Both the position numbers and the translations under genes were made by a program. DNA of 64,000 nt from an uncultured Gammaproteobacteria bacterium (GTDB taxonomy: Bacteria; Patescibacteriota; Patescibacteriia; Magasanikbacterales; UBA922), in NCBI GenBank assembly GCA_964566225.1, contig CAZMHV010000001.1, forward strand, positions 149,963 through 213,962. The letters are read 5' to 3'. Positions 11,043 to 62,051 of the stretch are shown one piece after another (the first letter of the stretch is position 1; each line of letters starts with the position of its first letter). The notes below the pieces were generated by a model. It ran no database searches. It was not told the origin of the DNA and worked only from the letters and a program-made list of their open reading frames with translations.

Positions 11043-12086
11043 ATGCCACATCGAAAACTTCTCATTGCTACACAAAACCCAGCCAAAGTGAAAGAAATCA
11101 TGCACGCGTTTGAAACGCTTCCTTTTGAGCTCGTTTCACTCAGTGATTTTTCAAATATCACTGTACCCGAAGAGCCCTATAACACGATTGAATTCAATGC
11201 TATTGCCAAGGCAAAGTACTATGCTGAGCAAACTGGACTCTTGTCACTCGCCGATGATTCTGGTATTTTTGTAGATGCTCTTGATGGCTGGCCTGGAGTC
11301 CACAGCGCACGCATTGGTGAAACCGATGACGAACGAATGAACAAAGTACTCGAGCAATTAAAAGATGTGCCCAAAGAACAACGTGGTGCCTCATTTCGGT
11401 GTGTGCTCGCGGTTGTGGATCCCAAAACAAATTCCATCCACACTTCATACGGCGAAGAGCAGGGGATACTGCTTGATGCGCCAGTGCAAGAACGTCGTGC
11501 TGGCTTTGGGTATGACCCAATCTTTTTTCTCCCAGAACTCGGCAAAACCTATGCAGAAATTCCCGTGGAAGAAAAAAATAAAACCAGTCACCGTGCCAAA
11601 GCACTGCACCAAATGGAATATGTTTTAAAAAAAGAATTTGGTGCACGTCACATTGTAGTGCCCTGTGGTTTCATTATCCAAAATGGACAACTCTATTTGC
11701 AAAAACGCAACGATCCATTCAGACCAGACTACCATGCTAAATGGGAATTTCCTGGCGGCGGAGTTGAATTCGGTGAACAAATTATTTCAAATGTGATTCG
11801 CGAAGTAAAAGAAGAAACTGGTTACGAAGTAGAAGTGGTGCAGCCACTCACTCACATTCAAGTAGAACCTCAAGAATATCCAAATTTTTCCTATCAAGTG
11901 TATCTCATTCCAATGGTCTGCAAAATAGTGGGTGGAAAATTTGAAGCACGAGATCACGAAGTGATGGAAGGAAAATGGTTTGACCTTGATGAAGTGCCAA
12001 GTTTACCACTGGTAGGGAATGATAAAGAGTTTTATGAAAAAGTGGTTGATGAGTTAAAACAAGTAGTTTTAAAATTCTCTTTATAG
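11043..12086 (+). CDS. rdgB: Fusion of RdgB/Ham1 non-canonical purine NTP pyrophosphatase (N-terminal ~200 aa) with a Nudix hydrolase domain (C-terminal ~140 aa)
   Basis: Ham1 motifs (ATQNPAKVKE, SLADDSGIFVDALDGWPGVHSAR, FGYDPIF), then the Nudix box GGGVEFGEQIISNVIREVKEETGY. Confidence 0.8.
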   Translation: MPHRKLLIATQNPAKVKEIMHAFETLPFELVSLSDFSNITVPEEPYNTIEFNAIAKAKYYAEQTGLLSLADDSGIFVDALDGWPGVHSARIGETDDERMNKVLEQLKDVPKEQRGASFRCVLAVVDPKTNSIHTSYGEEQGILLDAPVQERRAGFGYDPIFFLPELGKTYAEIPVEEKNKTSHRAKALHQMEYVLKKEFGARHIVVPCGFIIQNGQLYLQKRNDPFRPDYHAKWEFPGGGVEFGEQIISNVIREVKEETGYEVEVVQPLTHIQVEPQEYPNFSYQVYLIPMVCKIVGGKFEARDHEVMEGKWFDLDEVPSLPLVGNDKEFYEKVVDELKQVVLKFSL

Positions 12087-32356: not shown

Positions 32357-33721
32357 ATGTCAAATAAGCCACAAAAACCAATTCCTCCCCTCCCCTATCC
32401 TCTTTCACGCAAAACTCGGGTGGCTATTATGCTGACTTTGCTGAGTGTCTTTTTGATTTTGACTCCTGTTATTGTGATGTATGCCCGTGGATATACCTAT
32501 GATTTCAAAGAAAAAACCCTTATCCATGGAGGAGCCCTGAGTATTGAAACCACCCCCCGAGACGTTACTATTTCAATGAATGGTATCACCCTCAGTACTC
32601 TCCCCCCAGTGCGTTTACCAAATGTTTTGCCTGGGAATTATCACATAAAAATTGAAAAGGACGGATACTTCACTTGGGAAAAAAATATTTCTTTGGTGAG
32701 CAATCAAACCACCTATCTCCACGATATTGATTTGTTTCCTCAGCAAAAACCTGAAATGGCAATAACAAATGCCAACAATATTGTTCGTTTTTTTGCGTCT
32801 CCAAGTGCAAATGCTCTTTTGCTTTTGCGAAAACAGGGAGAAAATTTTGAATTGTCGCTCTACAACCCACTTCTTTCGCAAGAAACTTTTATCACCAAAA
32901 TTCTCTCTCCCAAGGTACCACCTCAAGTTGAGTGGTCACCAAGTGGTGAATTGATACGTATTGAATCAGTACGTGGAAATGAAAAAAACATCATGCTGCT
33001 CAATCCACTGAATCCAACCCTCATACAAACCAATAGTACCTCGAGTGAGGCAAACCAAATATTTCAATGGGAAGAAGGGTTACTTTCTACCGCACTTCTG
33101 TTGCAAGAAGGTACACAAATTCAAAGAATTGATTTAAATTCACTCCGTACGGTTTTTGATGTTACGCCATCTACTACCTCTTGGTACGCAGAAAATCAAA
33201 ATATTCTATGGCAGTATGCAGATCATACACTGAGTAAATACAAAAATGGAGTTGAAGTTTTTTCTGTACCTATCAAACAAAGTATCACTTCATTTTTGCA
33301 AACCAATCAAAACAGAATTCTGGCAACCAACGGAAGTAATTTGGTTATGATGGTACTCAAAGAAGATGGTACGGTAGAAGAAAATGAACTCCCCCTTTCG
33401 CATATATCCATGGTCAAAGACCAAGACTATTACTTAGCATGGCAAAATGGTGAACTGTGGGCTTTGTCTCCAGAAGGCACCGCGACACTTATCAATCGTT
33501 TCAGTGACGATATTATGTCAGTTATACCACTGACCAAAAGTGGCACCTTGCTGATTGCTACCCAAAATAAACTGTATACATTTCATCCTCGATACTATAT
33601 CACTCACGAACTTGTTTCCGCCGAAAATATTGAACGCGTGAGTGTTGATACCAGTAGTCGTCAAATCTTTTTTTTGGGAACGGTTGAAGGAAAAAATGCA
33701 GTTTGGAAGTTGGGGTATTAG
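32357..33721 (+). CDS. Membrane-anchored PEGA-domain protein with a large C-terminal beta-rich domain
   Basis: TM helix followed by a PEGA-like segment (DVTISMNGITLSTLPPVRLPNVLPGNYHIKIEKDGYFTWEK). The start was moved to the first Met outside the murA overlap. Confidence 0.55.
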   Translation: MSNKPQKPIPPLPYPLSRKTRVAIMLTLLSVFLILTPVIVMYARGYTYDFKEKTLIHGGALSIETTPRDVTISMNGITLSTLPPVRLPNVLPGNYHIKIEKDGYFTWEKNISLVSNQTTYLHDIDLFPQQKPEMAITNANNIVRFFASPSANALLLLRKQGENFELSLYNPLLSQETFITKILSPKVPPQVEWSPSGELIRIESVRGNEKNIMLLNPLNPTLIQTNSTSSEANQIFQWEEGLLSTALLLQEGTQIQRIDLNSLRTVFDVTPSTTSWYAENQNILWQYADHTLSKYKNGVEVFSVPIKQSITSFLQTNQNRILATNGSNLVMMVLKEDGTVEENELPLSHISMVKDQDYYLAWQNGELWALSPEGTATLINRFSDDIMSVIPLTKSGTLLIATQNKLYTFHPRYYITHELVSAENIERVSVDTSSRQIFFLGTVEGKNAVWKLGY

Positions 33722-36700
33722 GCAGCGTTACTTTGCCAGTCGTAGTTGGGAGTTGAATCAAGTTCTAAGTTTTCTTTTGTATTTTTTAGACTTACCCAGT
33801 ACACTTTCTCACCAGGGATAGTGTATTTTTGATTTACGTGACTTCCGCCAATGGTATCCACGTACTCGGTATCTCCAGGTCCACCGTAGGATACGAGTTG
33901 TCCATCGTACGGAGGAAGGATTTGGTTGGGTCGAAATTTGGCAGATACCACCAAATCTATGCCCATTTTGGTTGCTTTTTCTTGAGCGAGACGGAATAAC
34001 AGTTCATTACTGGTTTGAACAGAAGCGTCACTGCGGTGATAGCTGTGTTCCATGTTAATAACAGGTTTCTCCGCTTCTTCATCGTACAAAATTCTCATAA
34101 TGGCACGAGAAACAATATCGCCGGCTGCATCACGAACTACCACTGTTTTTACTTTGCCATCCATTAAGTAAGAAATAAGATTTCGGTTGAGACTTGGAGT
34201 ACCGTTCACATTCTGACAGGAACCAACCACATCAGTTCCCATACGTAACATAAGGTCAGGGTCTTCGGTTTCTTCAGCATAGAGTCCAGCAGTGGTATTT
34301 TGCACTGCTGGTTTTTCTTTTTGGAGTTCTCCAATGACGGTTTCCATATCACTCACATCTTGTAAAAATTGTGAGCCTTCGGTAAACGCTGCTTTTATTT
34401 CTGCCAGTAATTCAGATATTTTCTTTTCTTGCATGCCAGTCGAAGTTTTTTCTTTTATTATTCCTTCTTTGAATTGCTCCACTTTGAGTGACAAAAGTTT
34501 CATTGTGTTGTACAAAGCCACTGCTGTTTTTTCTGAAGCACTCAGATTTTTTTCTTTTTCAAAAGCGGCAACTTTGTCTTGCCAAACTTTTCTTATTTTG
34601 GCGCGTTCGATATCAGTACTCTCTAAGTACTGTTCCATAACTTCTTTAAATTCACCTTCAACGTGACTATGACGAATAGCTTCGGTAATAAATTCTTTGA
34701 CACGTTGTTTTACCATCATTTCACTATTTTCTGAAGTATCCGTCACTTCTCCTTTGTGGGAGAGTCGTGAGTCCATTTTCCACAATTTTTCTAAACGTGC
34801 GTCTCCGTTGAAAACTTTATCTAAATGTTCTCGGTGTTCATATCTTACGTGTGAAAGATTTCCTTTGGCTACTGCTTCAATGAATTTTTGAAACAAGGCA
34901 CGTTGGTGAGGGTATGCTTCCAATTTTGCTAAGTACACTACTACCAACTGAGGATTTTTGAATCTTTCAAGAAAACGATTGACTTCTTCTTTGCTAAGTT
35001 CAACTCCACACTTTTCGGCAAACAATTTTGGTACAAGATCTGAGAATTCATTGACAACTTGCTCTAGTTGCTGCTGTAGCACCTGAGCCGCTTGCTTTTT
35101 GTGCTCTGCCAAATCACGACCTTCAGGACCACGTGCTATTTGAGATTGTTTTTTTCTTATTTTTTGTTCAACTTTTTTGTATTGTTTTTCGTCATCTTGC
35201 ACAGTTTGTAGTTCTGCTGAAAGTGCCACTATCTCAGCTTGCAGGGGCTCTGACCATTCTTGTTTTTTTGCATTCAAAAAGTTACCATAATTTTGGTGTA
35301 CTTCCAAAAGTTTATTATTCATGAGAGTGAGTCCCTGACGAAAAAATGAACCTTGCAAAAAGGAACAACTTCTGAGGAGTTGACTCATTTCAAAAACTTT
35401 TTTCTTACACTCAGGGACTGCTTCCATAAGAGGAGTCGATCGATTGACAAAATTTCTTATATCATTTGCTTGTATCCCTTCACGAGTGATCTTATCTTGA
35501 TCTATTTTCTCATGCATTTCAACTAAAAAATATAAAAATCTGTCTTTATCTGTCTGTTTCTTGAGTACTTGTCCACTAAACATGTGGCCTGAAAACTCTT
35601 GTGCTTCTTTCACACTAAAATTAAAACTATTTGCTAGGAGGTGAAGTACTGGATATGTAGCTTCAGGGAAAGATTTAAGAATTTCTGCACTACAAGCCAG
35701 TGGAGACTGTTCAAAGATGTGAAATAAACGCAAACGTAAATTTTTATTGGCCAGAGCTTCTTGCGCTCCAATCATAGATAAAATAGAACGAATTTTATCT
35801 TGAGGAGAAAGAATTCTGAAATTTTCTTTTGCTCCTGTTACTTCCTCTGCTTTTTTTATGTGCTTTGCTATTTCTCCTACTTGTGCCCAGGCAAAGTCAA
35901 AATCTCTGTCAGTATTCAAATGTTTTTTTATAATATCGGCAATAACTTTACCACCTTGTTCTTCAAGCAAAGTCATTCTTCTGAGCAAGGATTCCCGCAT
36001 CTTCAAAGCAACATCAGTAGGCATTCTGTAACAGAGTGACCAGTCAAATGGTTGCTCTGGATTTTCGATTGCTTCTTGGAGAGCAGACTTAAATTTATTT
36101 ACATAGATTTCACAGCTTTCTTTGCCGCCTGTTTTAAATAAAAATTCTGACTCTGTATAATTATTGACACGGTGCTTAATACTCAAATGGTCTTCGGGCT
36201 GCTTTTCTGAAGATACAATCTCTAGGTTGTTACTTTGACCAATATAACGTGCCAAACAGGTTTGTTCTTGATCAGGAGTAAGCTCAATCACGCCTGCTTC
36301 CTGGTGCCAAAAAATGAGTCTTGCAGCCATACCATCGGTACAGATAGGAACCAGAGCGTCGGCTATTTTTTGACGGTATTCGGTAAGTCTTGTATCACTA
36401 AATGAAGTATCTAACAGTATCTCTACAACAGATACTTCTTGAGAGTCAATAATTCTTTGAACTATTTGGGGTATGAGTTCATTATCAACCTTATTTTTAC
36501 CATACGTGCTTCGAAGTATAATAAGTAAATTTTCAGCAGTTCCTCTTTCTAAAAGAGAACGGACAAAAAGAGAGTCGTCTTCTCGTGAAAATTCAACATT
36601 TTGATTTTGATGTCCAAGTCCACCAAGTATATCCATGAGCAGAGCTGAGCTTCCTACTTCAGCTATTCTCTTTTTTAAAATTTGTTGCTCTTGGGATGAA

Positions 36701-38883
36701 AAAGTGCAATGCATCCACGTATGTCCATTATACCCTGCACTCTGTGTGGATTTGTAAATAATATTTACACTTGCCTCATCTGTAGTAGGCAAAATCATTT
36801 TACAAATTCGTTCAAAGTGTCCTGGTCCTAATTGTAGACTATACTCATTACCCACTTTAATCTGATTCATAATCATTTGTGCTACCGCAGTATCACCTGT
36901 TGCGAGCATTTTTTCTATAATTTCTTTGCGAATATCTGAGCATTCTTTGGGTGAGGCAAAAGAATCTTCATAGGAACGCAATGAAAGATGGAGTTGAAAC
37001 CAAAATTTTGGATTTTCAAGTTTAAGAAACCCTTGGAGTAACTCTTTAAATGAAGCTTCTGAATTTTTGTCAATTTCTATACCAAAAAATTCTTTAAAAA
37101 AGGCAACCTCACCAGTTGTTTTTTTAGTACGACGAGAATAACCATGTTGGTGATACCCTTCATAAGTATTTTTAAACTGTCTAACAATTGGTTCAAAAAA
37201 TAAACATGATTTTGCATACTCTCTACGTAAAAATTCTTTTGTTTCTTTGCTGATCGCTGGTGATGCAAGTATTGGAGAAAAAAATTCTATTTTTTTGTTT
37301 TCATATTCAGGGTTCACAACGAGGCCAGGGTCAACAACTAACGCTTTGATTTGTTCCAAAAAAAGAAGACACCATTCTCTCAGAGCGTTCTCGACTTCTT
37401 CTTTTGTAAACTCTGGAAATTTTTCTTTGTACAATAAAATGGATTCAAAAAACTGAATCCTTGTTCGATAGGTATGAAGGTTACTTCGAGAGGAGTCCTG
37501 AGATACCTTTTGATTTTCAAAAAATTCTCTTTTTTCTTCTGGAGTTACGCCCCACAGTTCACCATTGAGAAGAGTGGAAAATGGATAGTCTGCTCTATTG
37601 GCTGCCATTGCTGCTTCTATCTGTTCATGTGAATTATATAACTGAAGAGCCAGATTGTCTTTTAGAATTTCATATTCGTCTGAAGTAATAGACACATAGC
37701 TTAAAAATTTGTCTGACAAAGGAAGACACCCTCTACCCACAGCAGCAAAAACCCTTTTAATGAGTTCAATTTTCTTTTTTGCAGGGAGCGCTCCTATTTC
37801 TTTATAAAAAACATCAGCATGGTTAATTATTTCTTTGGGATTCCACTGGTAGTATGCTTCAAAAAGTTGAACTCGAGTTTGGTCATCAATATAATCCGGA
37901 TTGAGTCCCTCGGAGGAATAATCTTCGAGAACAAACTCAGCCACCACTGCATTTCGTTGAGGAATATCACGTAATCTCTTGAGAACTTCTACTTGCTCGT
38001 CGTAGCTGCCCTTTCGTTGGTGTGGAGCAGGGGTATTAAGATCAATAACAGTAATAGCATAAATATCTGGATACTGTTTCAAAAATGCATTTTTTTGTTC
38101 AGTGATGAGCCTCTTTGCTGATTGTTTTGACTCTGAGTAAAGTAAAACTTCTTCTTTTTTTCTAAAATGTATTTGAATAGCTTTTTCAATCATTTTGGCT
38201 GTTTCGACATTTTGGTCAGGAGAAGCTTGCCAAAGCAAAAGAACTTGGTCAAGCATGTGTTCACGAACCTTTTCATCTGTCTCAATAGAAATTCTATGAA
38301 GACCATGACTTCCCAGAAGATCCATTATTTGTTGATTCAATATATCTCTTATAGGTTTATCTACCTGTCGCCATAATGTAGTATTCTCTCTTTGGGCCTG
38401 TATTGAAATAGCGTGTATGCTCTGTATTTCGGCCAACGGGAAGCTTTTTGGATCAGAATGTTTTCTTTGAGAGTACTGTTTTATCATTTTTTTCACTCTG
38501 TTTTCAAGTTCTCTAATGATTTTTGGATTATCTGTCACAGACAATTCTTGCTGTCTTTTTTGTTCCTGCCAATTTTTTACTGTTTCAATCGGTGCCGATA
38601 AGAATTTTCCTACTCTACCGAGAAACGAATTTTCAATCCGAGCGAGCTCTGCTTTGATTTCTTCGAGTTCACGTACCGTATCATGGTCTTCGGACATACC
38701 CGGGAGTGACTCCAGGGCATGACGAAGCTGAGCGCGCAGGTCTGCGGCTTGATCGGTAATGTGAGATTCGGCTTCTGAGAGTTTCTCTTTATCGGTAAGT
38801 TCAACTGGCTCAACTTTCTTTTCGTCGACACTTTCTAGATCAACTTCTCTAATTTTTTCTTCTTGGTCTGTTGGCATAGACAA
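33718..38883 (-). CDS. Giant hypothetical protein (1721 aa), soluble, largely alpha-helical/repetitive, with no recognised catalytic motif
   Basis: A single uninterrupted 5.2-kb ORF of native codon composition. It has an acidic low-complexity N terminus and a conserved-looking C-terminal ~200 aa (DVVGSCQNVNGTPSLNRNLISYLMDG...YGGPGDTEYVDTIGG). Confidence 0.7.
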   Translation of the reverse strand: MSMPTDQEEKIREVDLESVDEKKVEPVELTDKEKLSEAESHITDQAADLRAQLRHALESLPGMSEDHDTVRELEEIKAELARIENSFLGRVGKFLSAPIETVKNWQEQKRQQELSVTDNPKIIRELENRVKKMIKQYSQRKHSDPKSFPLAEIQSIHAISIQAQRENTTLWRQVDKPIRDILNQQIMDLLGSHGLHRISIETDEKVREHMLDQVLLLWQASPDQNVETAKMIEKAIQIHFRKKEEVLLYSESKQSAKRLITEQKNAFLKQYPDIYAITVIDLNTPAPHQRKGSYDEQVEVLKRLRDIPQRNAVVAEFVLEDYSSEGLNPDYIDDQTRVQLFEAYYQWNPKEIINHADVFYKEIGALPAKKKIELIKRVFAAVGRGCLPLSDKFLSYVSITSDEYEILKDNLALQLYNSHEQIEAAMAANRADYPFSTLLNGELWGVTPEEKREFFENQKVSQDSSRSNLHTYRTRIQFFESILLYKEKFPEFTKEEVENALREWCLLFLEQIKALVVDPGLVVNPEYENKKIEFFSPILASPAISKETKEFLRREYAKSCLFFEPIVRQFKNTYEGYHQHGYSRRTKKTTGEVAFFKEFFGIEIDKNSEASFKELLQGFLKLENPKFWFQLHLSLRSYEDSFASPKECSDIRKEIIEKMLATGDTAVAQMIMNQIKVGNEYSLQLGPGHFERICKMILPTTDEASVNIIYKSTQSAGYNGHTWMHCTFSSQEQQILKKRIAEVGSSALLMDILGGLGHQNQNVEFSREDDSLFVRSLLERGTAENLLIILRSTYGKNKVDNELIPQIVQRIIDSQEVSVVEILLDTSFSDTRLTEYRQKIADALVPICTDGMAARLIFWHQEAGVIELTPDQEQTCLARYIGQSNNLEIVSSEKQPEDHLSIKHRVNNYTESEFLFKTGGKESCEIYVNKFKSALQEAIENPEQPFDWSLCYRMPTDVALKMRESLLRRMTLLEEQGGKVIADIIKKHLNTDRDFDFAWAQVGEIAKHIKKAEEVTGAKENFRILSPQDKIRSILSMIGAQEALANKNLRLRLFHIFEQSPLACSAEILKSFPEATYPVLHLLANSFNFSVKEAQEFSGHMFSGQVLKKQTDKDRFLYFLVEMHEKIDQDKITREGIQANDIRNFVNRSTPLMEAVPECKKKVFEMSQLLRSCSFLQGSFFRQGLTLMNNKLLEVHQNYGNFLNAKKQEWSEPLQAEIVALSAELQTVQDDEKQYKKVEQKIRKKQSQIARGPEGRDLAEHKKQAAQVLQQQLEQVVNEFSDLVPKLFAEKCGVELSKEEVNRFLERFKNPQLVVVYLAKLEAYPHQRALFQKFIEAVAKGNLSHVRYEHREHLDKVFNGDARLEKLWKMDSRLSHKGEVTDTSENSEMMVKQRVKEFITEAIRHSHVEGEFKEVMEQYLESTDIERAKIRKVWQDKVAAFEKEKNLSASEKTAVALYNTMKLLSLKVEQFKEGIIKEKTSTGMQEKKISELLAEIKAAFTEGSQFLQDVSDMETVIGELQKEKPAVQNTTAGLYAEETEDPDLMLRMGTDVVGSCQNVNGTPSLNRNLISYLMDGKVKTVVVRDAAGDIVSRAIMRILYDEEAEKPVINMEHSYHRSDASVQTSNELLFRLAQEKATKMGIDLVVSAKFRPNQILPPYDGQLVSYGGPGDTEYVDTIGGSHVNQKYTIPGEKVYWVSLKNTKENLELDSTPNYDWQSNAA

Positions 38884-38908
38884 AAACCTGCACCAAAGCA
38901 GGTTGGGA

Positions 38909-39070
38909 TTAGAGTGATTGGATGTTGCTGATGATATTTTTCAAATGTTCAACACGATGTTCCTCGTATTTCTTGAGTACAGCGTGAAATTTGTGACGTA
39001 AACGGTTCATTTCACTATCAAACTCACTGAGTAACTCATCAACTGCTCTTTGTTTTTGAGAAATTTGCAT
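38909..39070 (-). CDS. Small hypothetical coiled-coil protein (53 aa) immediately upstream of the giant ORF
   Basis: ATG-initiated ORF MQISQKQRAVDELLSEFDSEMNRLRHKFHAVLKKYEEHRVEHLKNIISNIQSL, below the 60-aa cut-off of the ORF track and separated from the giant gene by a short hairpin. Confidence 0.3.
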   Translation of the reverse strand: MQISQKQRAVDELLSEFDSEMNRLRHKFHAVLKKYEEHRVEHLKNIISNIQSL

Positions 39071-39107
39071 AGAAAATATTTTATTTATTATACCATTTTT
39101 TTACACT

Positions 39108-39141
39108 TTCTAAAACAAAAAACCCGGGGGTGAACCGGGTT
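39108..39141 (-). terminator. Rho-independent terminator after leuS
   Basis: Minus-strand hairpin AACCCGGTTCACCCCCGGGTT followed by TTTTTGTTTT. Confidence 0.7.
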
Positions 39142-39157: not shown

Positions 39158-42100
39158 TTACACTACAATACTCACTAATTTTCCTTTGACATAAATCACT
39201 TTTTGAGGAGTTTTGCCATCGAGAAATTTTTGAACATTTTCTTGTGCTATTGCTTGTGCTGTAATATCTTCTTCAGTAATATTTGCATCAACTTCGAGAC
39301 TGGCACGAACCTTGCCATTGACCTGCACCACAATCGTGAGTGTATCTGAGACGATTTTTGCAGCATCATGAGTTGGAAATGGTTGAATCGTTACAGAATC
39401 GGTGTGTCCTTGATTTGCCCACATTTCTTCGGCAATATGTGGTGCAAATGGTGCCAAAATTTTGATAAACAGTTCAAAGTGTTCCGGTGCAATAGTTTCT
39501 TCTTTGCTGAGCACGTTGACGAGTTCCATCATTTTGGCAATCGCTGTGTTATATTGCATATTTGATAGGTCTTCACCAACTTTTTTGACAGTGAGGTGAA
39601 CGGTTCGTTCGGCTTCGGATGAAGGTGCTGCTGATGCAGTCACTTTTTCTTGCAATTTCCACACACGATCAAAAAATCTGCGTACGCCTTTGACACTGTC
39701 CGTATTCCAAGGCTTGGTTTGCTCGAGTGGACCCATGAACATTTCATACACGCGCATGGTGTCTGCGCCGTATTCGTTGATCACATCCGTTGGATTGATC
39801 ACATTCCCCCATCGTTTACTCATTTTGCGATTGTCTTCGCCGAGAATAAGACCTTGGTGACGAGTTTTGGTAAATGGTTCGTCAAAGGTGATATAACCAG
39901 CATCGTACAAAACTTTGGTAAAGAAACGTGAGTAGAGCAAATGTCCATTCACATGTTCTTCTCCGCCAAGATAGAAATCTACTGGCATCCATGTTTTGAG
40001 AGCCTCAGGGGAAGCAAACGCACCATCATTTTTTGGATCAAGATAACGATAATAATACCATGATGAACACATGAATGTGTCGAGGGTGTCCGGTTCACGT
40101 TTCCAACCTTTGCCATATTTTTCTTCGACTCCTGCATTGAATGATTCAGCATACATGAGTGGAGATTGACCGGTTGGTTTGAAGTCGACGTCGTCGGGGA
40201 GGATGACCGGAAGGTCTGTTTCGGGAAGTGCTTTCAAATCCATGCGAACTGGCGCGAGAACTTCTTGCAATAATTGAGGGAATTCTACAAAACCATCTTG
40301 CGCACCAAAGTGCCCAGCATTGCGCATACGTGTAACACGTGCAAAAGGCAAATGCTGATTGAAAAATTGTTGGGTAGAAGCCAGATCAATGTATGGATCA
40401 GTAGTAGAAAGAATAACCACAACTTCACCTACATTTTCTTGCACTTTTTGGAAATCAACAGGAGTACTCATGAATGTTTTGAGCATCTCCCACATGTTGT
40501 CTCCATCACAAAAATTACGAATGTTGGTGTACCAAATATCTGTTGGCAAAGTCGGTGCAATGAGCACAAGCTTACGCAATTTGTGAGTCTCTGCTAATTT
40601 TAAAGCATTCCAACAACTGAGTGATCGTCCAATAACAATACTATTTCCATCTCCGACTACTGGTTCTGCAACAGCTTGCCATTTTTCAAAGACGGGTAAA
40701 TTTGCTTCGGGAAGTTCAGGCGTAGAAACGTTGATGTTTTTTGCTCTCAACTTTTCTCCAAGCCATGGATGAAAATGATCAGCAGGACTACTTCCCCATG
40801 CATGAAGTTGCAACACTGAACTTGGTGCCTGTTGGTATTGTTCCAATAATTCTGGCGAAACATTTTCAACATGAAGCATCGGAATCGGTGCACCCCAAAA
40901 ACGCTGGCGAGACACAGACCAGTCGCGGAGTTTGTATTGCACTTTGCGGGTGCCGATTTCACGTTGTTCGAGGTGTTCGATGATTTTCTTTTTGGCTTCT
41001 TCCACAGAAAGACCGTTCAAAAAATCTGAATTTGTGAGGTGACCAGATCCGGTGTGAGGTTGGTTGGTAATTTCCATATCGGGTCCTTTCACCACTTGAC
41101 GAATTGTTAAACCAAACTTCGTTGCAAACTCAAAATCCCGCTCATCATGCGCAGGCACAGCCATAATCGCACCGGTTCCGTAGGATGCAAACACATAATC
41201 TGCCATCCACACAGGAATCTCTTCACCTGAAACAGGATTTACAGCCTTGAGGCCCTTGAGTTCAACACCTGACTTTTCTTTTTGGGTTTGACGATCCATG
41301 TCTGTTTTCAATTTTGTTTCATCAATATATTTTTTTACTTCATCCCAATTCGTGATCAAAGATTGCAATTCGGGAACCAAAGCATGTTCTGGAGCAACCA
41401 CCAAATACGTTGCACCAAAAATAGTATCTGGGCGTGTGGTAAACACTCGAATATTTTTGGCAGTTTGCAAAACAGGAAAATCAACTTCTGCACCTTCACT
41501 TCGTCCAATCCAATTGCGCTGGCGCATTTTGGTTTCTTCGGGCCAGTCGATGCGATCAAGTCCTTCAAGAAGTTTGTCAGCGTAGTCAGTGATTTTTAAA
41601 TACCATTGTTCCATGGGGCGTTGCACCACAACCGTGTCACAGCGTTCACATTTTCCTTCACCAGTCACCTGTTCGTTGGCGAGCGCAGTTTTACAACTAT
41701 CACACCAATTTACATTTTGATTTTTGCGATATGCCAAACCTTGTTTGTACATGAGGAGAAAAAACCACTGTGTCCATTTGTAATAATCACTATTGTGACT
41801 CCCCACTTCTCTGTCCCAGTCAACTGAAATTCCGAGGCCTTTGATTTGACTCCGAAAGTTATCAATGGCAGCGTTAGTACTCACGCGTGGATGTACATTG
41901 GTTTTAATCGCATAATTTTCAGCAGGCAAACCAAAAGAATCCCAGCCAATCACCTGGAGCACCTTTTTGCCCATCATACGTTGATAGCGCGCATAAATGT
42001 CACACGCTGTGTACACTTCGGCATGACCCACGTGAAGACCGCTTCCTGAAGGGTATGGAAGCTGTGGGAGGATGTACATTTTATTTTCGGGAGTAACATT

Positions 42101-42181
42101 GGTGGGTGTCTTATACAGGTTTTGCTTTTCCCACTCTGCTTGCCACTTTGGTTCAATTTCTTTGGGGTTGTATTGATTCAT
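39158..42181 (-). CDS. leuS: Leucyl-tRNA synthetase carrying a ~215-aa inserted RBBP9/YdeN-type serine hydrolase domain
   Basis: HIGH (HVGHAE), CP1 editing motifs (TTRPDT, AHDERD) and KMSKS (KMSKR) are all present. Residues ~436-655 align to the PF06821 family (HFHPWLGEKL, GRSLS, TTDPYI, NAGHFGAQDGFVEFP). Confidence 0.9.
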   Translation of the reverse strand: MNQYNPKEIEPKWQAEWEKQNLYKTPTNVTPENKMYILPQLPYPSGSGLHVGHAEVYTACDIYARYQRMMGKKVLQVIGWDSFGLPAENYAIKTNVHPRVSTNAAIDNFRSQIKGLGISVDWDREVGSHNSDYYKWTQWFFLLMYKQGLAYRKNQNVNWCDSCKTALANEQVTGEGKCERCDTVVVQRPMEQWYLKITDYADKLLEGLDRIDWPEETKMRQRNWIGRSEGAEVDFPVLQTAKNIRVFTTRPDTIFGATYLVVAPEHALVPELQSLITNWDEVKKYIDETKLKTDMDRQTQKEKSGVELKGLKAVNPVSGEEIPVWMADYVFASYGTGAIMAVPAHDERDFEFATKFGLTIRQVVKGPDMEITNQPHTGSGHLTNSDFLNGLSVEEAKKKIIEHLEQREIGTRKVQYKLRDWSVSRQRFWGAPIPMLHVENVSPELLEQYQQAPSSVLQLHAWGSSPADHFHPWLGEKLRAKNINVSTPELPEANLPVFEKWQAVAEPVVGDGNSIVIGRSLSCWNALKLAETHKLRKLVLIAPTLPTDIWYTNIRNFCDGDNMWEMLKTFMSTPVDFQKVQENVGEVVVILSTTDPYIDLASTQQFFNQHLPFARVTRMRNAGHFGAQDGFVEFPQLLQEVLAPVRMDLKALPETDLPVILPDDVDFKPTGQSPLMYAESFNAGVEEKYGKGWKREPDTLDTFMCSSWYYYRYLDPKNDGAFASPEALKTWMPVDFYLGGEEHVNGHLLYSRFFTKVLYDAGYITFDEPFTKTRHQGLILGEDNRKMSKRWGNVINPTDVINEYGADTMRVYEMFMGPLEQTKPWNTDSVKGVRRFFDRVWKLQEKVTASAAPSSEAERTVHLTVKKVGEDLSNMQYNTAIAKMMELVNVLSKEETIAPEHFELFIKILAPFAPHIAEEMWANQGHTDSVTIQPFPTHDAAKIVSDTLTIVVQVNGKVRASLEVDANITEEDITAQAIAQENVQKFLDGKTPQKVIYVKGKLVSIVV

Positions 42182-49680: not shown

Positions 49681-50367
49681 ATGCCTTTCATTCTTATCAA
49701 CAAAGAAGCTGGGTGGACCAGTCATGACGTGGTTGGATATTTGCGCAAAGTCACCCGCCTCAAAAAAATTGGCCATGCCGGAACCCTGGACCCATTTGCT
49801 ACGGGTTTGCTTATTGTTGGCATTGGACGGGACGCTACCAAGCGCCTCGATGAATTTAAAAATAAAAAAAAGACGTATGAGGCCACGGTGCATTTGGGAG
49901 CAGTGAGTGATACCTATGATAGCACCGGAATTATAACCCCTACTGGGGCAAATATAAAAAGTATTCAAAAAGAACAAATTGAGCTGTTACTAGCACAATT
50001 TTTTGGTACTCAAGAGCAAATTCCACCTATGTACTCTGCCAAAAAAGTAGGTGGTGAAAAATTGTATGACCTGGCAAGAAAAGGTATAGAAATAGAGCGC
50101 AAACCCCATACTATTACCATCGAGAGTATTCGCCTTGGAGAAATCAAGGACAATGAATTTACTCTACAAGTGACCTGCTCGCCTGGGACCTATATTCGTA
50201 CCCTAGTGCATGATATTGGAAGTAAACTTGGCGTAGGCGCCTACTGTGAGACGCTCAAACGAACAGCCATTGGTGAATTTTTGGTTGAGAGTGCCCATGA
50301 AGTAAAAACCCTCACCCGTGAAAATTGGGAGACCGTGTGCTTTGACCTGCCCACCTTGTCCCCATGA
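49681..50367 (+). CDS. truB: tRNA pseudouridine(55) synthase
   Basis: Catalytic Asp motif GHAGTLDPFATGLL. Short form lacking a PUA domain. Confidence 0.9.
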   Translation: MPFILINKEAGWTSHDVVGYLRKVTRLKKIGHAGTLDPFATGLLIVGIGRDATKRLDEFKNKKKTYEATVHLGAVSDTYDSTGIITPTGANIKSIQKEQIELLLAQFFGTQEQIPPMYSAKKVGGEKLYDLARKGIEIERKPHTITIESIRLGEIKDNEFTLQVTCSPGTYIRTLVHDIGSKLGVGAYCETLKRTAIGEFLVESAHEVKTLTRENWETVCFDLPTLSP

Positions 50368-50474
50368 CAAGACTTGACAGAGGTGGTATTATAGGATATA
50401 TTTGGCTATCTTTCCGCAATTCTGCGGCGAGATCTGGCTCTGTGCCAGAATCCTTAAAACCAACTCTGTGGTAG

Positions 50475-51068
50475 GTGAATATGGACCACCCTGTCGACAT
50501 CATGTTCGACAATCCTCGGGTGGACAAGTTCACCCGTGATTTATTTGTCGATCTTGCGATCGACCTCGGACTCGGCTTGTCTGAGCCAGACATTGAATTG
50601 ACCACCCTGGTGGTGAAGCAATTCATGAATGGTTTGTACACGCTCCTGTGTGAGTGGGAGGCTGGAACCGGGAGAACTGACAACCCGTACGCTTTGCTGC
50701 TCCTGCTGAACGAAATGGCAACGTTTCCCATGCGAGAGGACTGGAAAGCGCGCACACGGCAGCAGTTCGAATGCTTCCAGTTTCAACTGAGGCACCGATT
50801 CGAGCAAGAACCATGGGCCAAACGTCAGTCACCGCAGGATCCGACCATCCGAGAAGTCCAACCTGCTCGGTGGTGGAAGATCATGACCGGCACCGGCATG
50901 ATCTTGTTTCACAGGTTCCTCGTGAGAGACCTGAGGAAACGCGACCTGCACATTCGACGTGGGATACGTACGGTCGCACGAGCGAACCGAGCCAAGCGCA
51001 TGCCCATGGCTACGGCCACAGCCGAAACTGATGCTACGTCCGACGACGAGCACAAGCGTTCGGCCTGA
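50475..51068 (+). CDS. Hypothetical protein encoded in a GC-rich (~58-60%) island
   Basis: ORF with balanced amino-acid composition and GC-rich codon usage unlike flanking genes; the competing antisense ORFs are Arg/Pro-rich. Confidence 0.45.
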   Translation: MNMDHPVDIMFDNPRVDKFTRDLFVDLAIDLGLGLSEPDIELTTLVVKQFMNGLYTLLCEWEAGTGRTDNPYALLLLLNEMATFPMREDWKARTRQQFECFQFQLRHRFEQEPWAKRQSPQDPTIREVQPARWWKIMTGTGMILFHRFLVRDLRKRDLHIRRGIRTVARANRAKRMPMATATAETDATSDDEHKRSA

Positions 51069-51451
51069 GCTACCCTACAGAGGAAATCACGTGGTGGTTG
51101 TAGAATCGTATTCTCTCCACCACGTTCCCCTGCCCTTTGGTATCAAACATGTTTGGTAACAGTGGGCAGGGTTTTGTATTTTGCAAAACAAAAAAAGAAT
51201 GTTATACTTTTTTTGTTTTGATTCTGAAACTCCGTAAATAAAACCTTTGTTCTTTACTTATAATCAACTTGAATAGAGTGAATGTTTGATGGGTAAAAAA
51301 ATAATTTTTCAATTTTCAAGAATTATTTTTCAACCCGTCAACGTTTCTCTGTTCCCCGAAAATCACCGGGGTCGTTGACTAGCCACTGTTTCAAAAAGGC
51401 AATTTCTGCCTTGCGAGACTTTGCCGATAATACGGAGAAGGGGTAAGGGTC

Positions 51452-51907
51452 TTGAAGAAACTTTTTGACCTGATCGAGGCGTTTCAAAGGCTCCTCCTGG
51501 CTCGGATCGCCGAGTACAACCTGGGCAGTCCCCCTGCCCTCTCGAGCGACCAACTGGCTACCCTGCTGGAACTCTTCAGCAAGCTCGACCGCTACGACGC
51601 GGCGTCCCTCGCCATGAGGCACACTGGCGCCAAGGCGGGCAACCGCCTCTATGAGGCGAAGCGCGAGCAGTTCTGTCTCGCCCTCCCCGAGGAGCTGCGC
51701 CCGTTCTTCGTCGAGGCGCAGACGATGGGGCGTGTCATCGCCGAGGCAGGGTGCTACACCCTGAATGACGCTCGTTGGTGGGATCCCCCACAGGTTCCGC
51801 TGCAACGGCGAGTCTTGGCGGTGCGACCGCTGCCAAGTGTCGACACTGCGTCGGAGACAGTCCGGCGAGCAATGCTCTCCCCTCGAACCGCGCGCATCGG
51901 GCCGTAG
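51452..51907 (+). CDS. Hypothetical protein in a GC-rich island (TTG start per the ORF track, preceded by GGAGAAGGGG)
   Basis: Balanced composition on the + strand against Arg-rich antisense frames, with an SD-like purine tract upstream and a strong terminator downstream. Confidence 0.4.
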   Translation: MKKLFDLIEAFQRLLLARIAEYNLGSPPALSSDQLATLLELFSKLDRYDAASLAMRHTGAKAGNRLYEAKREQFCLALPEELRPFFVEAQTMGRVIAEAGCYTLNDARWWDPPQVPLQRRVLAVRPLPSVDTASETVRRAMLSPRTARIGP

Positions 51908-51936
51908 ACCTCCCAGGTCTCCGGCTTGTATCTTTT

Positions 51937-52010
51937 GGCGCACGAACGTTTCGTGCGCCAGTCCTGATTTTTTTTATCACACTCTGTGGTAGAAAAAATC
52001 AGGACTTTTT
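51937..52010 (+). terminator. Tandem hairpin terminator closing the GC-rich island, possibly also serving minus-strand uvrC
   Basis: GGCGCACGAACGTTTCGTGCGCC followed by AGTCCTGATTTTTTTT...AAAAAATCAGGACTTTTTTATTTT. Confidence 0.7.
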
Positions 52011-57921: not shown

Positions 57922-58015
57922 TATATTGCGGCGTTGCGGGAATGATGTGTTGTTTGTTTCCCCACGAACGTGAACAGGATGTTCATGTTCGTGCGCCTGG
58001 GCGCGTGGTGTTGGC

Positions 58016-58867
58016 TTAGGCGGCCGAGGCCACCTGCTCCTGATAGCCGAGCACCAGCGCGCTGAAGCGATCGTAGGCCAGGCGGCCCGCTTCGGTGACC
58101 TCGTCGTGCGAGAGCTCGGCGCCGGTGATGCCGGCCGCCATGTTGGTCATGAGCGACACACCGGCCACACGCAGACCACACCAGTTGGCCGCGATGGCCT
58201 CGGGCACGGTCGACATGCCCACGGCATCAGCCCCGAGGACGCGGAGCATCCGAATCTCGGCAGGGGTCTCGTAGTTGGGCCCCTTGAACGCGGCGTAAAC
58301 ACCCTGCTGGAGTTCCCCCACTCCACACTTGCTGGCCGCTTGCATGAGCATCAGCTCACCGTGACGGTACAGATTGCTCTGCCCGGGGAAACGCGGTCCG
58401 AGCTTGTTGTTGTTCGGCCCGACCAGGGGGTTCTCGCCCGTGAGGTTGAGGTGATCCACGATGGCCATGAGGTCACCACGCTTCCAATCCACCCGGATGC
58501 ACCCGGCGGCGTTGGTGAGCAGGATGTCGTTGACACCCATCTCCTTGGCCAAAAGCACCGACTGCACCACCTGCTGGGCCGTGTAGCCCTCGTTGAGGTG
58601 CAGACGACCCGCGAACGCGATGGTGGGCACGCCACTGAGCATACCCATGAACACCTTGCGGTCGTGGCCCTCGACCTCGGTGTTGATGAACGGCCACAGG
58701 GTGCGGAAGTCCACCACCAGCGCCCCCTGGTCGAACTTCTCGACCAGCTTGCCGAGGCCGCTCCCGAGCACGAGCGCGACCTTGGGGCCGGTCCAGCCAT
58801 TGGGCTTTTTCCAGGCCGCGAGACGGGGCAAGAGCACAGACATCACAGTCGAATCGAGTCGAAGCAT
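58016..58867 (-). CDS. Purine nucleoside phosphorylase / 5'-methylthioadenosine phosphorylase family (PNP family 2)
   Basis: VALVLGSGLG phosphate loop, MSTVPEA and NMAAG motifs. About 65% GC. The start is set at MLRLDS, preceded by AAGGAGAAG 7 nt upstream. Confidence 0.8.
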   Translation of the reverse strand: MLRLDSTVMSVLLPRLAAWKKPNGWTGPKVALVLGSGLGKLVEKFDQGALVVDFRTLWPFINTEVEGHDRKVFMGMLSGVPTIAFAGRLHLNEGYTAQQVVQSVLLAKEMGVNDILLTNAAGCIRVDWKRGDLMAIVDHLNLTGENPLVGPNNNKLGPRFPGQSNLYRHGELMLMQAASKCGVGELQQGVYAAFKGPNYETPAEIRMLRVLGADAVGMSTVPEAIAANWCGLRVAGVSLMTNMAAGITGAELSHDEVTEAGRLAYDRFSALVLGYQEQVASAA

Positions 58868-58925
58868 CGCAGCTTCTCCTTTGCGGTAAAGCCCAGTACA
58901 CATTGACTGGGACGGTTGTGGCCGG

Positions 58926-58954
58926 ATACTACCCTTTTTTAAAAAAATTTGCAA
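58926..58954 (-). promoter_or_regulatory. Sigma70-like promoter TTGCAA-N17-TAGTAT driving the GC-rich PNP gene
   Basis: Near-consensus -35/-10 hexamers with 17-nt spacing, upstream of the Shine-Dalgarno sequence and start. Confidence 0.5.
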
Positions 58955-58966
58955 GGGGCCAAGCAC

Positions 58967-58994
58967 AAAAAATCACCTCTTGTAAGGTGATTTT
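58967..58994 (-). terminator. Rho-independent terminator after the DUF1697 gene, end of the accessory operon
   Basis: Hairpin AAAATCACCTTACAAGAGGTGATTTT with flanking T-runs. Confidence 0.7.
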
Positions 58995-59008
58995 ATTTTT
59001 ATTCTTTT

Positions 59009-59536
59009 TTACTTTTCTTCACAAAGTTTCCGCGCTGTGTTCACATTGCGCACAGTCATGAGTTTGTAATACTTGTGGCTAATAACTTTGTTCAAATGAC
59101 TCTTGTTTACATTCTCTCGGCGTATATTCCAAATCAAGGCACCCTTTACATAGCGAATATCCACACATTCTTTTTTGATGGGAAGTTCATCAATAGTTTT
59201 TTTGGAGTCAATTTCTGGGAATAAATAGGCAACGTCGGTTCTTTGGATAGCATCATTGGCCCACTCAGGCGGAATGGCCTTGGCAATGGTCTGCATTTGT
59301 GTGCGAGTTTTAACAAGCGTCGCAACTTCAAAACCAAATGTTTTTTCAATTGCTTTTTCCATTTCTTTTTGGAGCAGCTCAGGTTTTTTGTTTGATTCAA
59401 ACAGTACGTTGCCAGAGTTGATGTAGGTGGAAACGTTGGAGTAGCCAAGTGACTCACACATGGCTTTGAGTTTTTTCATGTTGACTTGGCGAGTGGTGCC
59501 GACGTTGATGCCGCGCAGGAGGGCGATGTGGTGCAT
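59009..59536 (-). CDS. DUF1697 family protein
   Basis: N-terminal signature IALLRGINVG...STYINSGNVLF; start set at MHHIALLRG. Confidence 0.7.
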   Translation of the reverse strand: MHHIALLRGINVGTTRQVNMKKLKAMCESLGYSNVSTYINSGNVLFESNKKPELLQKEMEKAIEKTFGFEVATLVKTRTQMQTIAKAIPPEWANDAIQRTDVAYLFPEIDSKKTIDELPIKKECVDIRYVKGALIWNIRRENVNKSHLNKVISHKYYKLMTVRNVNTARKLCEEK

Positions 59537-59550
59537 AAAAATATACCTAA

Positions 59551-59835
59551 TTAACAAACACTAAACGCAGAACTTTCATCGATAGAAATATCATCTGTTT
59601 TACACTTTGGACATCGGTCAGCTGCATTTTGACAGACCTCTCCCCCACACGCTTCGCACACTCCAATTTGTTCTGGCAAAAGAACAACTTCGTAGGCTCG
59701 TCGTTCAGGATGGTCGATTCGTTTTGATTTTCCGCAGTCTTTGCATTTGTACAGGGTAAAATAAAAACCACGACCACCTGAGACCGTACACTCTTCACCA
59801 CACACATTACATTTTGCAAAAAAGTAGGTTGCCAT
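59551..59835 (-). CDS. Small zinc-ribbon protein with four CxxC pairs
   Basis: CNVCGEEC...CKDCGK...CEACGGEVC...CPKC. Confidence 0.5.
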   Translation of the reverse strand: MATYFFAKCNVCGEECTVSGGRGFYFTLYKCKDCGKSKRIDHPERRAYEVVLLPEQIGVCEACGGEVCQNAADRCPKCKTDDISIDESSAFSVC

Positions 59836-59840
59836 AAAAT

Positions 59841-60593
59841 TTAGAGAGCTTTACCCACCGCCCCCACATACGCACAAAAATCACAGTTCGCACTCGCCTT
59901 GGGCACACTTTTTTTATCAAGACATTTTTTGGCAGCGACAATTGCGTCCTCCACCCATGCGTCGTCGCCATCGTACGCAATGAGTGTAATATCAAATTCA
60001 AGTTTGGCGTCAAAGGCTTTTCGGTCGGTTTGACCATTGCAGTACACAAAGTATCCGGTGCTCGAAACTTTGTATCCATTGCAGCGAAGCAGCCACTGAT
60101 ACATTTCCATTTGGCGTTTGTATCCGTCTTGCCAGTCTTTGTTTAGCTCGGTAATTTCTTCACTCTTCGAAGTTGACTTGTAGTCCACCACAATATACTC
60201 GCCTTTTGAATTTTGCCACAAATCATCAATGGCACCAAACACCAAAAAATTGGTGGCCTCATGGAGATATTGAACACCGGTAAAATTGTGTCGCCACGCA
60301 TCCAAATTTTCATGCGCTACAGGCCGAGCATCCACACCATATTTTTTGATTAAAGGATGCGCATTGCCACTGGCGCGATGAATATCAAACTCAAGCTTGA
60401 GCAAATGATCAACCGCCGAATTGAGCGCAAACGGAAATCCAGGTGGCCGCCCTACGCCGAGGCGTCGATCGAGGTAGAAGCAACGTGGACAGTCGAGAAA
60501 GAGTTCAATTTTGGAGCGGGAGAGTTTGAAGGGGGTTTCTTGTTTAGGCGTGTAGAGGTTTTTGGTGCGGTGAGGGGTGTAGTACTCGGACAT
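59841..60593 (-). CDS. Cas4-like PD-(D/E)XK nuclease with probable Fe-S cluster cysteines (stand-alone, no CRISPR array)
   Basis: RecB-fold motifs (GAIDDL, VVDYKSTSK, QMEMYQWLL) plus Cys at the N terminus (CPRCFY) and C terminus (C...CDFCAY). Confidence 0.65.
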   Translation of the reverse strand: MSEYYTPHRTKNLYTPKQETPFKLSRSKIELFLDCPRCFYLDRRLGVGRPPGFPFALNSAVDHLLKLEFDIHRASGNAHPLIKKYGVDARPVAHENLDAWRHNFTGVQYLHEATNFLVFGAIDDLWQNSKGEYIVVDYKSTSKSEEITELNKDWQDGYKRQMEMYQWLLRCNGYKVSSTGYFVYCNGQTDRKAFDAKLEFDITLIAYDGDDAWVEDAIVAAKKCLDKKSVPKASANCDFCAYVGAVGKAL

Positions 60594-61750: not shown

Positions 61751-62014
61751 CTATGAATTAGATTTTTTCATAGCTTTTATTGACCAAACTATAGATCTGA
61801 CAAACTGAACAAAAAAATACGGTAATAATATAAATAGGTATACTCCTTCCTCTCGATCGAAAATTGCTATAAAAAATCTTTTATATATCTTTGAAAAAGT
61901 GTGCTCGTCAGCTATGAATAAATTTATAATTACAGGAAGTATTAACAAACCAAATAATACGGATAAAATTAAAATAATCCACTCTTTTGCAAATATTTTT
62001 TTTTCAAACTTCAT
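61751..62014 (-). CDS. Small hypothetical membrane protein (2 TM)
   Basis: ORF with two hydrophobic helices in the accessory island. Confidence 0.35.
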   Translation of the reverse strand: MKFEKKIFAKEWIILILSVLFGLLILPVIINLFIADEHTFSKIYKRFFIAIFDREEGVYLFILLPYFFVQFVRSIVWSIKAMKKSNS

Positions 62015-62051
62015 AAATTTAATAATAAAAGTAATATTTTAAAAATCCACA

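Follow-up and report, generated by a model that had tools for sequence, protein, structure and literature searches.

A rare gene pair encoding a small helical protein and a giant modular protein with exchangeable C-terminal modules, tentatively an effector-type transferase cassette of CPR bacteria

Background

The LXG polymorphic toxins and Lap targeting factors of the type VIIb secretion system (T7SSb) of Bacillota (Klein et al. 2024, PMC10801868) are the described system that most closely resembles the gene pair reported here. There, a conserved helical N-terminal domain is joined to variable C-terminal enzymatic domains, small alpha-helical partners are encoded immediately upstream and no Sec signal is present. 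We describe a similar arrangement on the minus strand of a 64,000-nucleotide stretch of contig CAZMHV010000001.1 (the window), where a small open reading frame (ORF) immediately precedes a gene for a giant protein. Our tentative proposal is that the two genes form a cassette of the Candidate Phyla Radiation (CPR)/Patescibacteria and encode a partner-assisted, modular transferase of effector type.

The giant protein also has, between two predicted helices of its N-terminal head, an L-x-G tripeptide (LPG, aa 58-60), which we regard as a lead and not as a test. Several differences separate the two systems. The giant family has one partner of ~53 aa where the LXG toxins have two of ~100 aa or more, its proteins are 3-5 times longer and come from another phylum, and the unit exchanged between them is ~780 aa or larger, whereas an LXG toxin domain has ~150 aa. 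Neither the head nor the small ORF has an LXG or WXG100 match in Pfam (N-terminal tiles and small ORF: no match to LXG, PF04740, or WXG100 at E <= 1), and PDB profile searches with the head alignment found nothing. No immunity gene lies downstream at the loci of the family. The window has no ORF of EssC/EccC size or family, and no T7SS component was seen at the loci. With its micro-protein partner, conserved head, swappable tails and lack of a Sec signal, and in a lineage of host-dependent bacteria with reduced genomes, the family resembles polymorphic effectors in its logic, with LXG-Lap as the nearest counterpart, and every sequence-based comparison places it outside the LXG family itself.

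Giant genes are also on record from ultra-small bacteria, Omnitrophota among them (West-Roberts et al. 2023, bioRxiv 10.1101/2023.11.21.568195; Seymour et al. 2023, PMC10066038). They likewise encode very large proteins of small-celled, probably host-dependent bacteria, with a proposed role in interactions with other cells. Those proteins are reported to be much larger, however, and to have a suspected part in the degradation of cell walls. We found no sequence relationship between them and the family described here. This family, its micro-protein partner and its C-terminal domain have no description in Pfam, NCBIfam or the searchable literature.

Results and discussion

The giant gene and its family

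The original prediction described one uninterrupted minus-strand ORF and we find it as claimed: read from its TTG it covers 33718..38883 (1721 aa). The true start is probably ATG 38877, two codons further in (MPTDQEEK...), because public gene calls use this ATG and the N-termini of the relatives, which read MP(T/I)D, align with it. A 324,723-bp NCBI contig and a Logan assembly also carry this protein, and the relative P0003 aligns collinearly to its aa 1-665 and 937-1718. A chimera joined by sequencing errors, which the original prediction had named as a possible refutation, is therefore ruled out. The codon composition had been called native. The gene is indeed close to its neighbours and does not look foreign, although it is slightly AT-richer (GC 0.377 and third-position GC (GC3) 0.283, against GC 0.39-0.44 and GC3 0.29-0.37).

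The protein is soluble and helix-rich without a recognisable catalytic sequence motif, as predicted. Its highest 19-aa Kyte-Doolittle mean is 1.63 and its first 35 aa carry a net charge of -7; by hydropathy and N-terminal charge it has neither a transmembrane nor a signal-peptide-like segment, and neither occurs in any other family member. Searches with the whole protein, with nine tiles of 200-319 aa and with profiles returned zero significant matches in Pfam, NCBIfam, PADLOC and PDB sequences. These results bear on the idea that the protein has no enzymatic role and is instead structural, cytoskeletal or part of a surface filament (SMC-like, coiled-coil or adhesin), with its C-terminal domain as a binding module. 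We consider it highly improbable, given that no SMC, Walker or coiled-coil family was matched by the whole protein or the nine tiles, that a signal peptide, transmembrane segment or cell-wall anchor is lacking, and that the alternative C-terminal module described below has an intact nucleotidyltransferase catalytic motif, which points to enzymes. The great length and the largely helical prediction would suit such a protein, as would the membrane-anchored PEGA protein that adjoins the giant gene in the syntenic clade, but that neighbour is absent from the other four contexts. Membership of SMC, cytoskeletal or LXG families was rejected at the sequence level (Pfam, NCBIfam, PADLOC and PDB searches, tiles, profiles); homology to a cytoskeletal or SMC-like family had been named at the outset as what would overturn the original prediction.

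The protein had been called an orphan. We find instead a small family of about 15 giant relatives (1108-2612 aa) among 15 billion proteins. Apart from the giant protein, a word-indexed search returned a single relative, P0002 (2511 aa; 38% identity over aa 22-180), and an exhaustive HMMER search with aa 1-1200 returned 12 relatives, nearly all giant. A scan of 185,579 species-representative genomes gave one match, in a Candidatus Magasanikbacteria metagenome-assembled genome (MAG), and one metagenome scan contributed just two more loci. P0015 is annotated at NCBI as a hypothetical protein of Candidatus Uhrbacteria. The family is very rare and, by its named members from Candidatus Uhrbacteria and Magasanikbacteria MAGs, belongs to the CPR/Patescibacteria. 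We rejected a phage origin of the giant gene, as the C-terminal domain was found on zero viral contigs scanned.

The most widely conserved part of the family is a head at aa 22-190, common to P0002, P0003, P0005 and P0009-P0013 in BLASTP against the full giant protein. Similarity continues weakly past it to aa ~500-665, and it occurs in relatives with different C-terminal modules. An acidic low-complexity N-terminus of ~90 aa had been proposed. Only aa 1-21 are acidic and variable, and the remainder of that region belongs to the family-defining head.

The small partner

In 10 of the 11 complete loci a helical ORF of 50-55 aa directly precedes the giant gene; these ten cover five genomic contexts (window, L002, L004, L005, L007, L008, L010, L012, L013 and L014). 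The unannotated 53-aa ORF of the window is thus a genuine conserved gene and forms one unit with the giant gene, as originally suggested. In the six syntenic loci the small proteins have 52-53 aa and 50-70% identity to the window copy (65-70% for the four aligned). In the four non-syntenic contexts the ORF stops 3-5 nt before the ATG of the giant gene; these are L010 (locus of P0006), L014 (P0009), L012 (P0007), where the cassette lies between an S1-domain gene and ftsH, and L013 (P0012), where it lies between a UPF0102 gene and nusA. The distant small proteins have a similar amphipathic pattern, some with a C-terminal LKK(I)xxxIK motif. No ribbon-helix-helix (RHH) or helix-turn-helix (HTH) match to the small protein was found, and a PDB profile search with it was empty.

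In the close pair L004/L005 the ratio of non-synonymous to synonymous substitution (dN/dS) is 0.20 for the giant gene, indicative of purifying selection, and 0.30 for the small ORF. These ratios argue that both are functional genes.

The exception to the upstream ORF is the Uhrbacteria locus (L003 8474-13327, GCA_009691315.1), where the homologue occupies three consecutive ORFs of 364, 111 and 1108 aa, collinear with P0006. The 364-aa and 111-aa ORFs resemble the N-terminal part of P0006 weakly but collinearly. This suggests a fragmented gene, which could reflect misassembly, programmed frameshifting or decay to a pseudogene. A HicAB pair is located immediately upstream of the split homologue.

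A GNAT-like domain ends the type-A module

The window protein ends in a C-terminal module that we define as type A. Identity to the window copy is 46.5% in P0003, 49% in P0004, 47% in P0014, 38% in P0006, 39% in P0007 and 30% in P0015. The last ~190 aa are the best-conserved part of the giant protein, with 58 invariant columns over eight sequences and the motifs EExExPDxxLRxGxDVxGSCQN, LNRNLISYxMDGKxK, VRD, ExSYH, GGPGxxEYVD and Y-x-I. Invariant within the terminal domain are GSCQN (aa 1552-1556, with Cys1554), ExSYH (1610-1614), GGPG (1665-1668) and EYVD (1671-1674). The globular and conserved character that had been attributed to the last ~200 aa is borne out by these columns and by an alpha/beta model.

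The model was obtained with AlphaFold2 (AF2) for aa 1270-1719 from a 7-sequence alignment. Its mean predicted local distance difference test score (pLDDT) is 73, with 80-90 in the core, and in it a helical region precedes an alpha/beta domain whose strands and helices follow the GNAT order (beta-alpha-alpha-beta-beta-beta-alpha-beta-beta). A single-sequence model (pLDDT 50) was too poor for use. In a Foldseek search of PDB the best 50 matches are all GNAT enzymes, among them NatD, RimI, AAC(3), Hpa2, GNA1, SSAT and AtaT (probability ~1, E ~1e-2, 84-163 aligned columns, target-normalised template modelling scores up to 0.63), with nothing below E = 1e-3. Compact matches in BFVD are likewise of GNAT/NMT type. 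On the modelled fold order and on all of its top structural neighbours, the domain resembles the GNAT superfamily, AtaT and TacT included.

Other features set the domain apart from known GNATs. Profiles and a PDB profile search gave no sequence-level GNAT family match, the sole hint being that one of the eight members matched IDM1_C at E = 0.23. The coenzyme A (CoA) pyrophosphate-binding motif A, expected as Q/R-x-x-G-x-G/A after beta4, is degenerate; the site reads H-R-S-D-A-S, H-R-S-G-A-P or H-R-E-G-A-P and does not fit the pattern. Of the GNAT core fold (beta1-alpha1-alpha2-beta2-beta3-beta4-alpha3-beta5-alpha4-beta6), helix alpha4 is missing from the AF2 model. The two best-conserved motifs, GSCQN and GGPGxTEYVD, fall in low-confidence loops and to our knowledge have no counterpart in GNATs, and the domain ends a 1719-aa protein. 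We conclude that the model describes a GNAT-like fold with a non-canonical motif set, probably catalytic or ligand-binding. It is not a demonstrated acetyltransferase, and acyl-CoA-dependent activity is a prediction from the model.

The original prediction had raised the possibility that this domain also occurs as a stand-alone protein. No such form turned up in a word-indexed search with the last 240 aa or in profile, genome, metagenome and viral scans, where the domain was met only at the ends of giant proteins or on truncated contigs.

Replacement and recent exchange of the C-terminal module

Six genomes (window, L002, L004, L005, L007 and L008) have the cassette in the same chromosomal slot, in the order gdh, inositol-phosphatase, leuS, small ORF, giant gene, PEGA (convergent), murA-like, ctpB and ribF. 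The giant protein in this slot ranges from 1255 to 2511 aa. L002 is the nearest relative of the window: identity to the window is 92% for the MurA-like protein, 72% for CtpB, 69% for RibF, 70% for the small ORF and 41% for PEGA, compared with 71%, 71%, 68%, 68% and 35% for L004. Yet the giant proteins of the window and L002 have only the head in common (38% over 170 aa), while the more distant L004, L005 and L007 have the type-A module at 47-49% identity (giant protein of L004, 49% over 853 aa).

The tail of the L002 giant protein (P0002), together with those of P0010 and P0012, forms a second module, type B, which is unrelated to type A (hhalign probability 2%). Its invariant motif GS.GR.E..L.SD.DY.L.VDD is the signature of Pol-beta nucleotidyltransferases of the GlnE/GlnD/DUF294 type, for which the AMPylating domain of Legionella DrrA/SidM is an example. 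This likeness (G-S-x-G-R-x-E...S-D-x-D) is confined to these three relatives and does not extend to the protein of the window. Three family proteins have weak DUF294 matches, below or near the Pfam cut-off, and P0005 has a weak CD-NTase-like match in PADLOC.

Between L004 and L005, DNA identity is 85-96% over the C-terminal two-thirds of the giant gene, ~78% over the housekeeping flanks and 64-71% over PEGA, and it falls sharply at the 3' end of the giant gene. Synonymous divergence (dS) is 0.37 in the giant gene and 1.1-2.3 in the flanks. Because the giant gene is more alike than its flanks and has a lower dS, these comparisons indicate a recent transfer of the tail module by recombination. 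The dN/dS of the giant gene and small ORF in this pair is 4-6 times that of the flanks. We dropped the description of a hypervariable gene between 92%-identical flanks, since MurA alone gave 92% and the other flanks gave 41-77%. Type-A modules evolve at roughly the rate of RibE or PEGA. It is module replacement and recent exchange, and not the overall evolutionary rate, that make the locus unusual.

Since the small protein is 70% identical before the type-A tail of the window and the type-B tail of L002, it accompanies the conserved head and not the enzymatic tail. This independence of tail type argues against a tail-specific immunity or antitoxin role. It bears on another explanation, a toxin-antitoxin or anti-phage defence-like pair in which the giant protein is a sensor-effector whose GNAT-like or nucleotidyltransferase head becomes toxic on activation, and the small protein an antitoxin or inhibitor made in excess through the leaky terminator described below. 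We consider such a pair unlikely, even though the small gene comes first as in GNAT-type toxin-antitoxin modules, the AtaT toxin is among the fold matches, CD-NTase cyclase and PDC-M70A are matched weakly by some relatives in PADLOC, defence genes typically swap effector modules and move horizontally, and termination behind the first gene would leave the small protein in excess. In AtaT-AtaR and TacT-TacA, by contrast, the partner has an RHH/HTH DNA-binding domain and is specific to the toxin; the protein of the window has no PADLOC match, the locus lies outside any defence island and no copy was found on a viral contig.

A possible role for the cassette

The reading to which we tentatively give preference, a modular effector-type transferase with a small partner, would divide the giant protein into three parts: a helical head common to the family, a long scaffold of helices and, at the C-terminus, an enzymatic head that can be exchanged. 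In the window this enzymatic head would be an acyltransferase of GNAT-like fold whose invariant motifs contain Cys, His, Glu and Tyr, and in sister lineages the whole module would have been replaced by the Pol-beta nucleotidyltransferase module. We propose that the small protein binds the conserved head, and not the variable one, as a stabilising or targeting partner. The target would be covalently modified, by acyl transfer in the window and by nucleotidyl transfer in the type-B relatives. Variation of the target may be the reason why recombination swaps the tails, as in effectors and polymorphic toxins, and the most plausible place for the target would be the cell of a host or competitor, to which the protein would travel by a route other than Sec. 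The suggestion in the original prediction of a host-interaction factor is compatible with the evidence.

Beyond the departures from canonical GNATs described above, several observations weigh against this proposal. No secretion signal, secretion machinery or immunity gene is found next to any locus. The downstream genes vary with context (PEGA in convergent orientation, FtsH, NusA, or a 130-aa ORF plus PDDEXK) and none is conserved. The affiliation of the window itself with CPR comes from the named relatives and not from a marker in the window. Binding of the head by the small protein and termination at the hairpin described below are proposals. Finally, the position of the giant gene amid housekeeping genes, stable and apparently single-copy, would fit a cytoplasmic role equally.

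A cytoplasmic housekeeping or regulatory enzyme, with an intracellular scaffold, a head that modifies proteins or metabolites (GNAT-type acylation in the window, GlnE/GlnD-type nucleotidylylation in relatives), a small regulatory subunit and nothing exported, is a possibility that we hold somewhat doubtful but rank nearly as likely as the effector-type transferase. GlnD/GlnE-type nucleotidyltransferases and GNATs are classical intracellular regulators. A cytoplasmic enzyme would account for the lack of any signal peptide or transmembrane segment across the family, for the slot between leuS and murA-like/ctpB that is stable in six genomes, for a giant gene that is single-copy in the window and under purifying selection, and for the absence of an immunity gene. 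It would be less easily reconciled with the swap of an entire catalytic module between close relatives and its recent horizontal exchange, which are unusual for a core regulator, with the extreme rarity and patchiness of the family (~15 in 15 billion proteins) or with a dN/dS 4-6 times that of the flanks.

To return to an effector-type transferase, it is conceivable that the small protein and the head together constitute a new bipartite export or targeting signal of CPR bacteria that delivers interchangeable enzymatic heads into host cells. Such a signal would be functionally analogous to LXG-Lap or PE-PPE and evolutionarily unrelated to them. We regard this more specific idea as doubtful.

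Hairpin, promoter and translation signals

A GC hairpin with a T-tract between the two ORFs had been noted and is present in the window (AACCTGC-TTTGGT-GCAGGTT followed by TTTG, 38904..38885; -10.8 kcal/mol, z = -2.9). The CCTGC/GCAGG stem and the T-run are kept in all six syntenic loci, with loops that vary (TTTGGT, GTCAAG, TTCCC, TTTGTG) and folding energies of -8.8 to -13.7 kcal/mol (z -2.9 to -4.3). The support is a pattern of conservation and not covariation, as there are no compensatory double substitutions among the six loci. The four distant loci have no hairpin between small ORF and giant gene, so the gene pair is not defined by attenuation.

There is no room for a promoter between hairpin and ATG, and the giant gene must therefore be transcribed through the hairpin. 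Within the leuS-slot clade, the simplest reading of the hairpin and U-tract is a leaky terminator which, with a promoter before the small ORF, would yield more small than giant protein. On these sequence features the 'attenuated bicistron' of the original prediction appears reasonable. An alternative in which the hairpin occludes a ribosome-binding site was rejected, since GGAG, GAGG or AGGA occurs at -20..-4 in 0 of 33 sampled genes of the window. Most of these 33 gene starts have T at -1 (TATG), and translation in this genome appears to start independently of Shine-Dalgarno pairing.

A TGnTATAAT element upstream of the small ORF is conserved in all six syntenic loci. In four of them it is a promoter-like element, TGGTATAAT (L004 ~2160-2183, L005 ~9790-9812, L007 ~450-473, L008 ~8670-8696), that overlaps the leuS stop and sits only ~9 nt before the small ORF ATG, which suggests a leaderless or near-leaderless transcript of the small ORF there. 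In the other two loci, those of the window and L002, leuS and the small ORF are set apart by an inserted terminator and a new TGnTATAAT element. The features of the locus are listed in Table 1.

Table 1. Coordinates of the features of the giant-gene locus in the window
Feature	Coordinates	Strand	Description
Giant gene	33718..38877	minus	1719 aa from ATG 38877; reading frame stays open to TTG 38883
Conserved N-terminal head, aa 22-190	38308..38814	minus	Motifs LRxxLxxALExLPG (aa ~45-60) and DNPKII (aa 116); from BLAST and alignments
Type-A C-terminal module, aa ~940-1719	33721..36060	minus	Helical scaffold and terminal alpha/beta domain
GNAT-like alpha/beta domain, aa ~1533-1700	33778..34281	minus	From alignments, AF2 model, Foldseek PDB and BFVD
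Small partner gene	38909..39070	minus	53 aa, amphipathic helical protein; equivalents upstream in relatives
Intercistronic hairpin and U-tract	38880..38904	minus	Terminator-like; 7-bp stem, 6-nt loop, ends ~10 nt before giant ATG
Promoter-like site	39087..39114	minus	TTTAGA, 16-nt spacer, TG-extended TATAAT; upstream of small ORF
leuS intrinsic terminator	39121..39141	minus	Separates leuS from the small-ORF/giant unit in the window genome and L002

Neighbouring genes

Downstream of the giant gene, the convergent gene at 32357-33721 (+), open from TTG 32246, encodes the membrane-anchored PEGA-domain protein, and its stop overlaps that of the giant gene by 4 nt. It is the fastest-evolving gene of the neighbourhood, at 30-41% identity where CtpB is 56-72%, and in the pair L004/L005 it is 62% identical compared with 86-91% for most other genes of the locus (RibE 70%).

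Upstream, LeuRS (39158-42181, minus strand, 1007 aa) has an alpha/beta-hydrolase domain inserted at about aa 443-650 (Pfam Ser_hydrolase, E = 8e-12). The LeuRS of L008 (5837-8686, 949 aa) has a NUDIX domain inserted elsewhere, at aa ~383-507, and that of L005 (7283-9802, 839 aa) has no insert. The enzyme-domain insertions of this essential aminoacyl-tRNA synthetase are variable.

The window is otherwise made up of housekeeping genes, including MreB/C, PBP2, a Mur ligase, several aminoacyl-tRNA synthetase genes, IF2, CTP synthase and UvrC. A class II aminoacyl-tRNA synthetase (tRNA-synt_2, Asp/Lys/Asn type) at 6212-8119 (+) is fused to a C-terminal DUF2000 domain (E = 1.4e-17), and a 347-aa protein at 11043-12086 (+) fuses a Ham1-type non-canonical NTP pyrophosphatase to NUDIX. 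A Schlafen group-3-like DNA/RNA helicase (E = 9e-103) is encoded at 62504-63964 (-); the surrounding 62001-64000, with low GC (0.32) and a GC skew of -0.27, may be a foreign or defence-related segment. The stretches 50001-52000 and 58001-60000 have GC of 0.51-0.52 compared with ~0.39 in the rest of the window, and Rfam found no rRNA or other RNA in them. The second spans the gene of a PNP_UDP_1 phosphorylase, which has a long ORF antisense to it.

Conclusions

The architecture described here varies in a new way on an established design, in which a helical helper accompanies a conserved head whose enzymatic tails are polymorphic. Little is known of how CPR/Patescibacteria interact with their hosts and exploit them, and almost no candidate effectors have been defined by sequence. 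The locus provides a signature that can be searched for, a helical ORF of ~53 aa followed by a giant protein with an LRxxLxxALExLPG / DNPKII head. It also supplies two putative enzymatic heads and clear evidence that lineages exchange the tail modules. Even if the giant protein is cytoplasmic, it represents a new protein family with a non-canonical GNAT-like domain and an obligate micro-protein partner, both unannotated so far. If the proposed delivery of enzymatic heads into host cells is true, the pair would be the first recognisable effector-delivery cassette of ABY1-type Patescibacteria.

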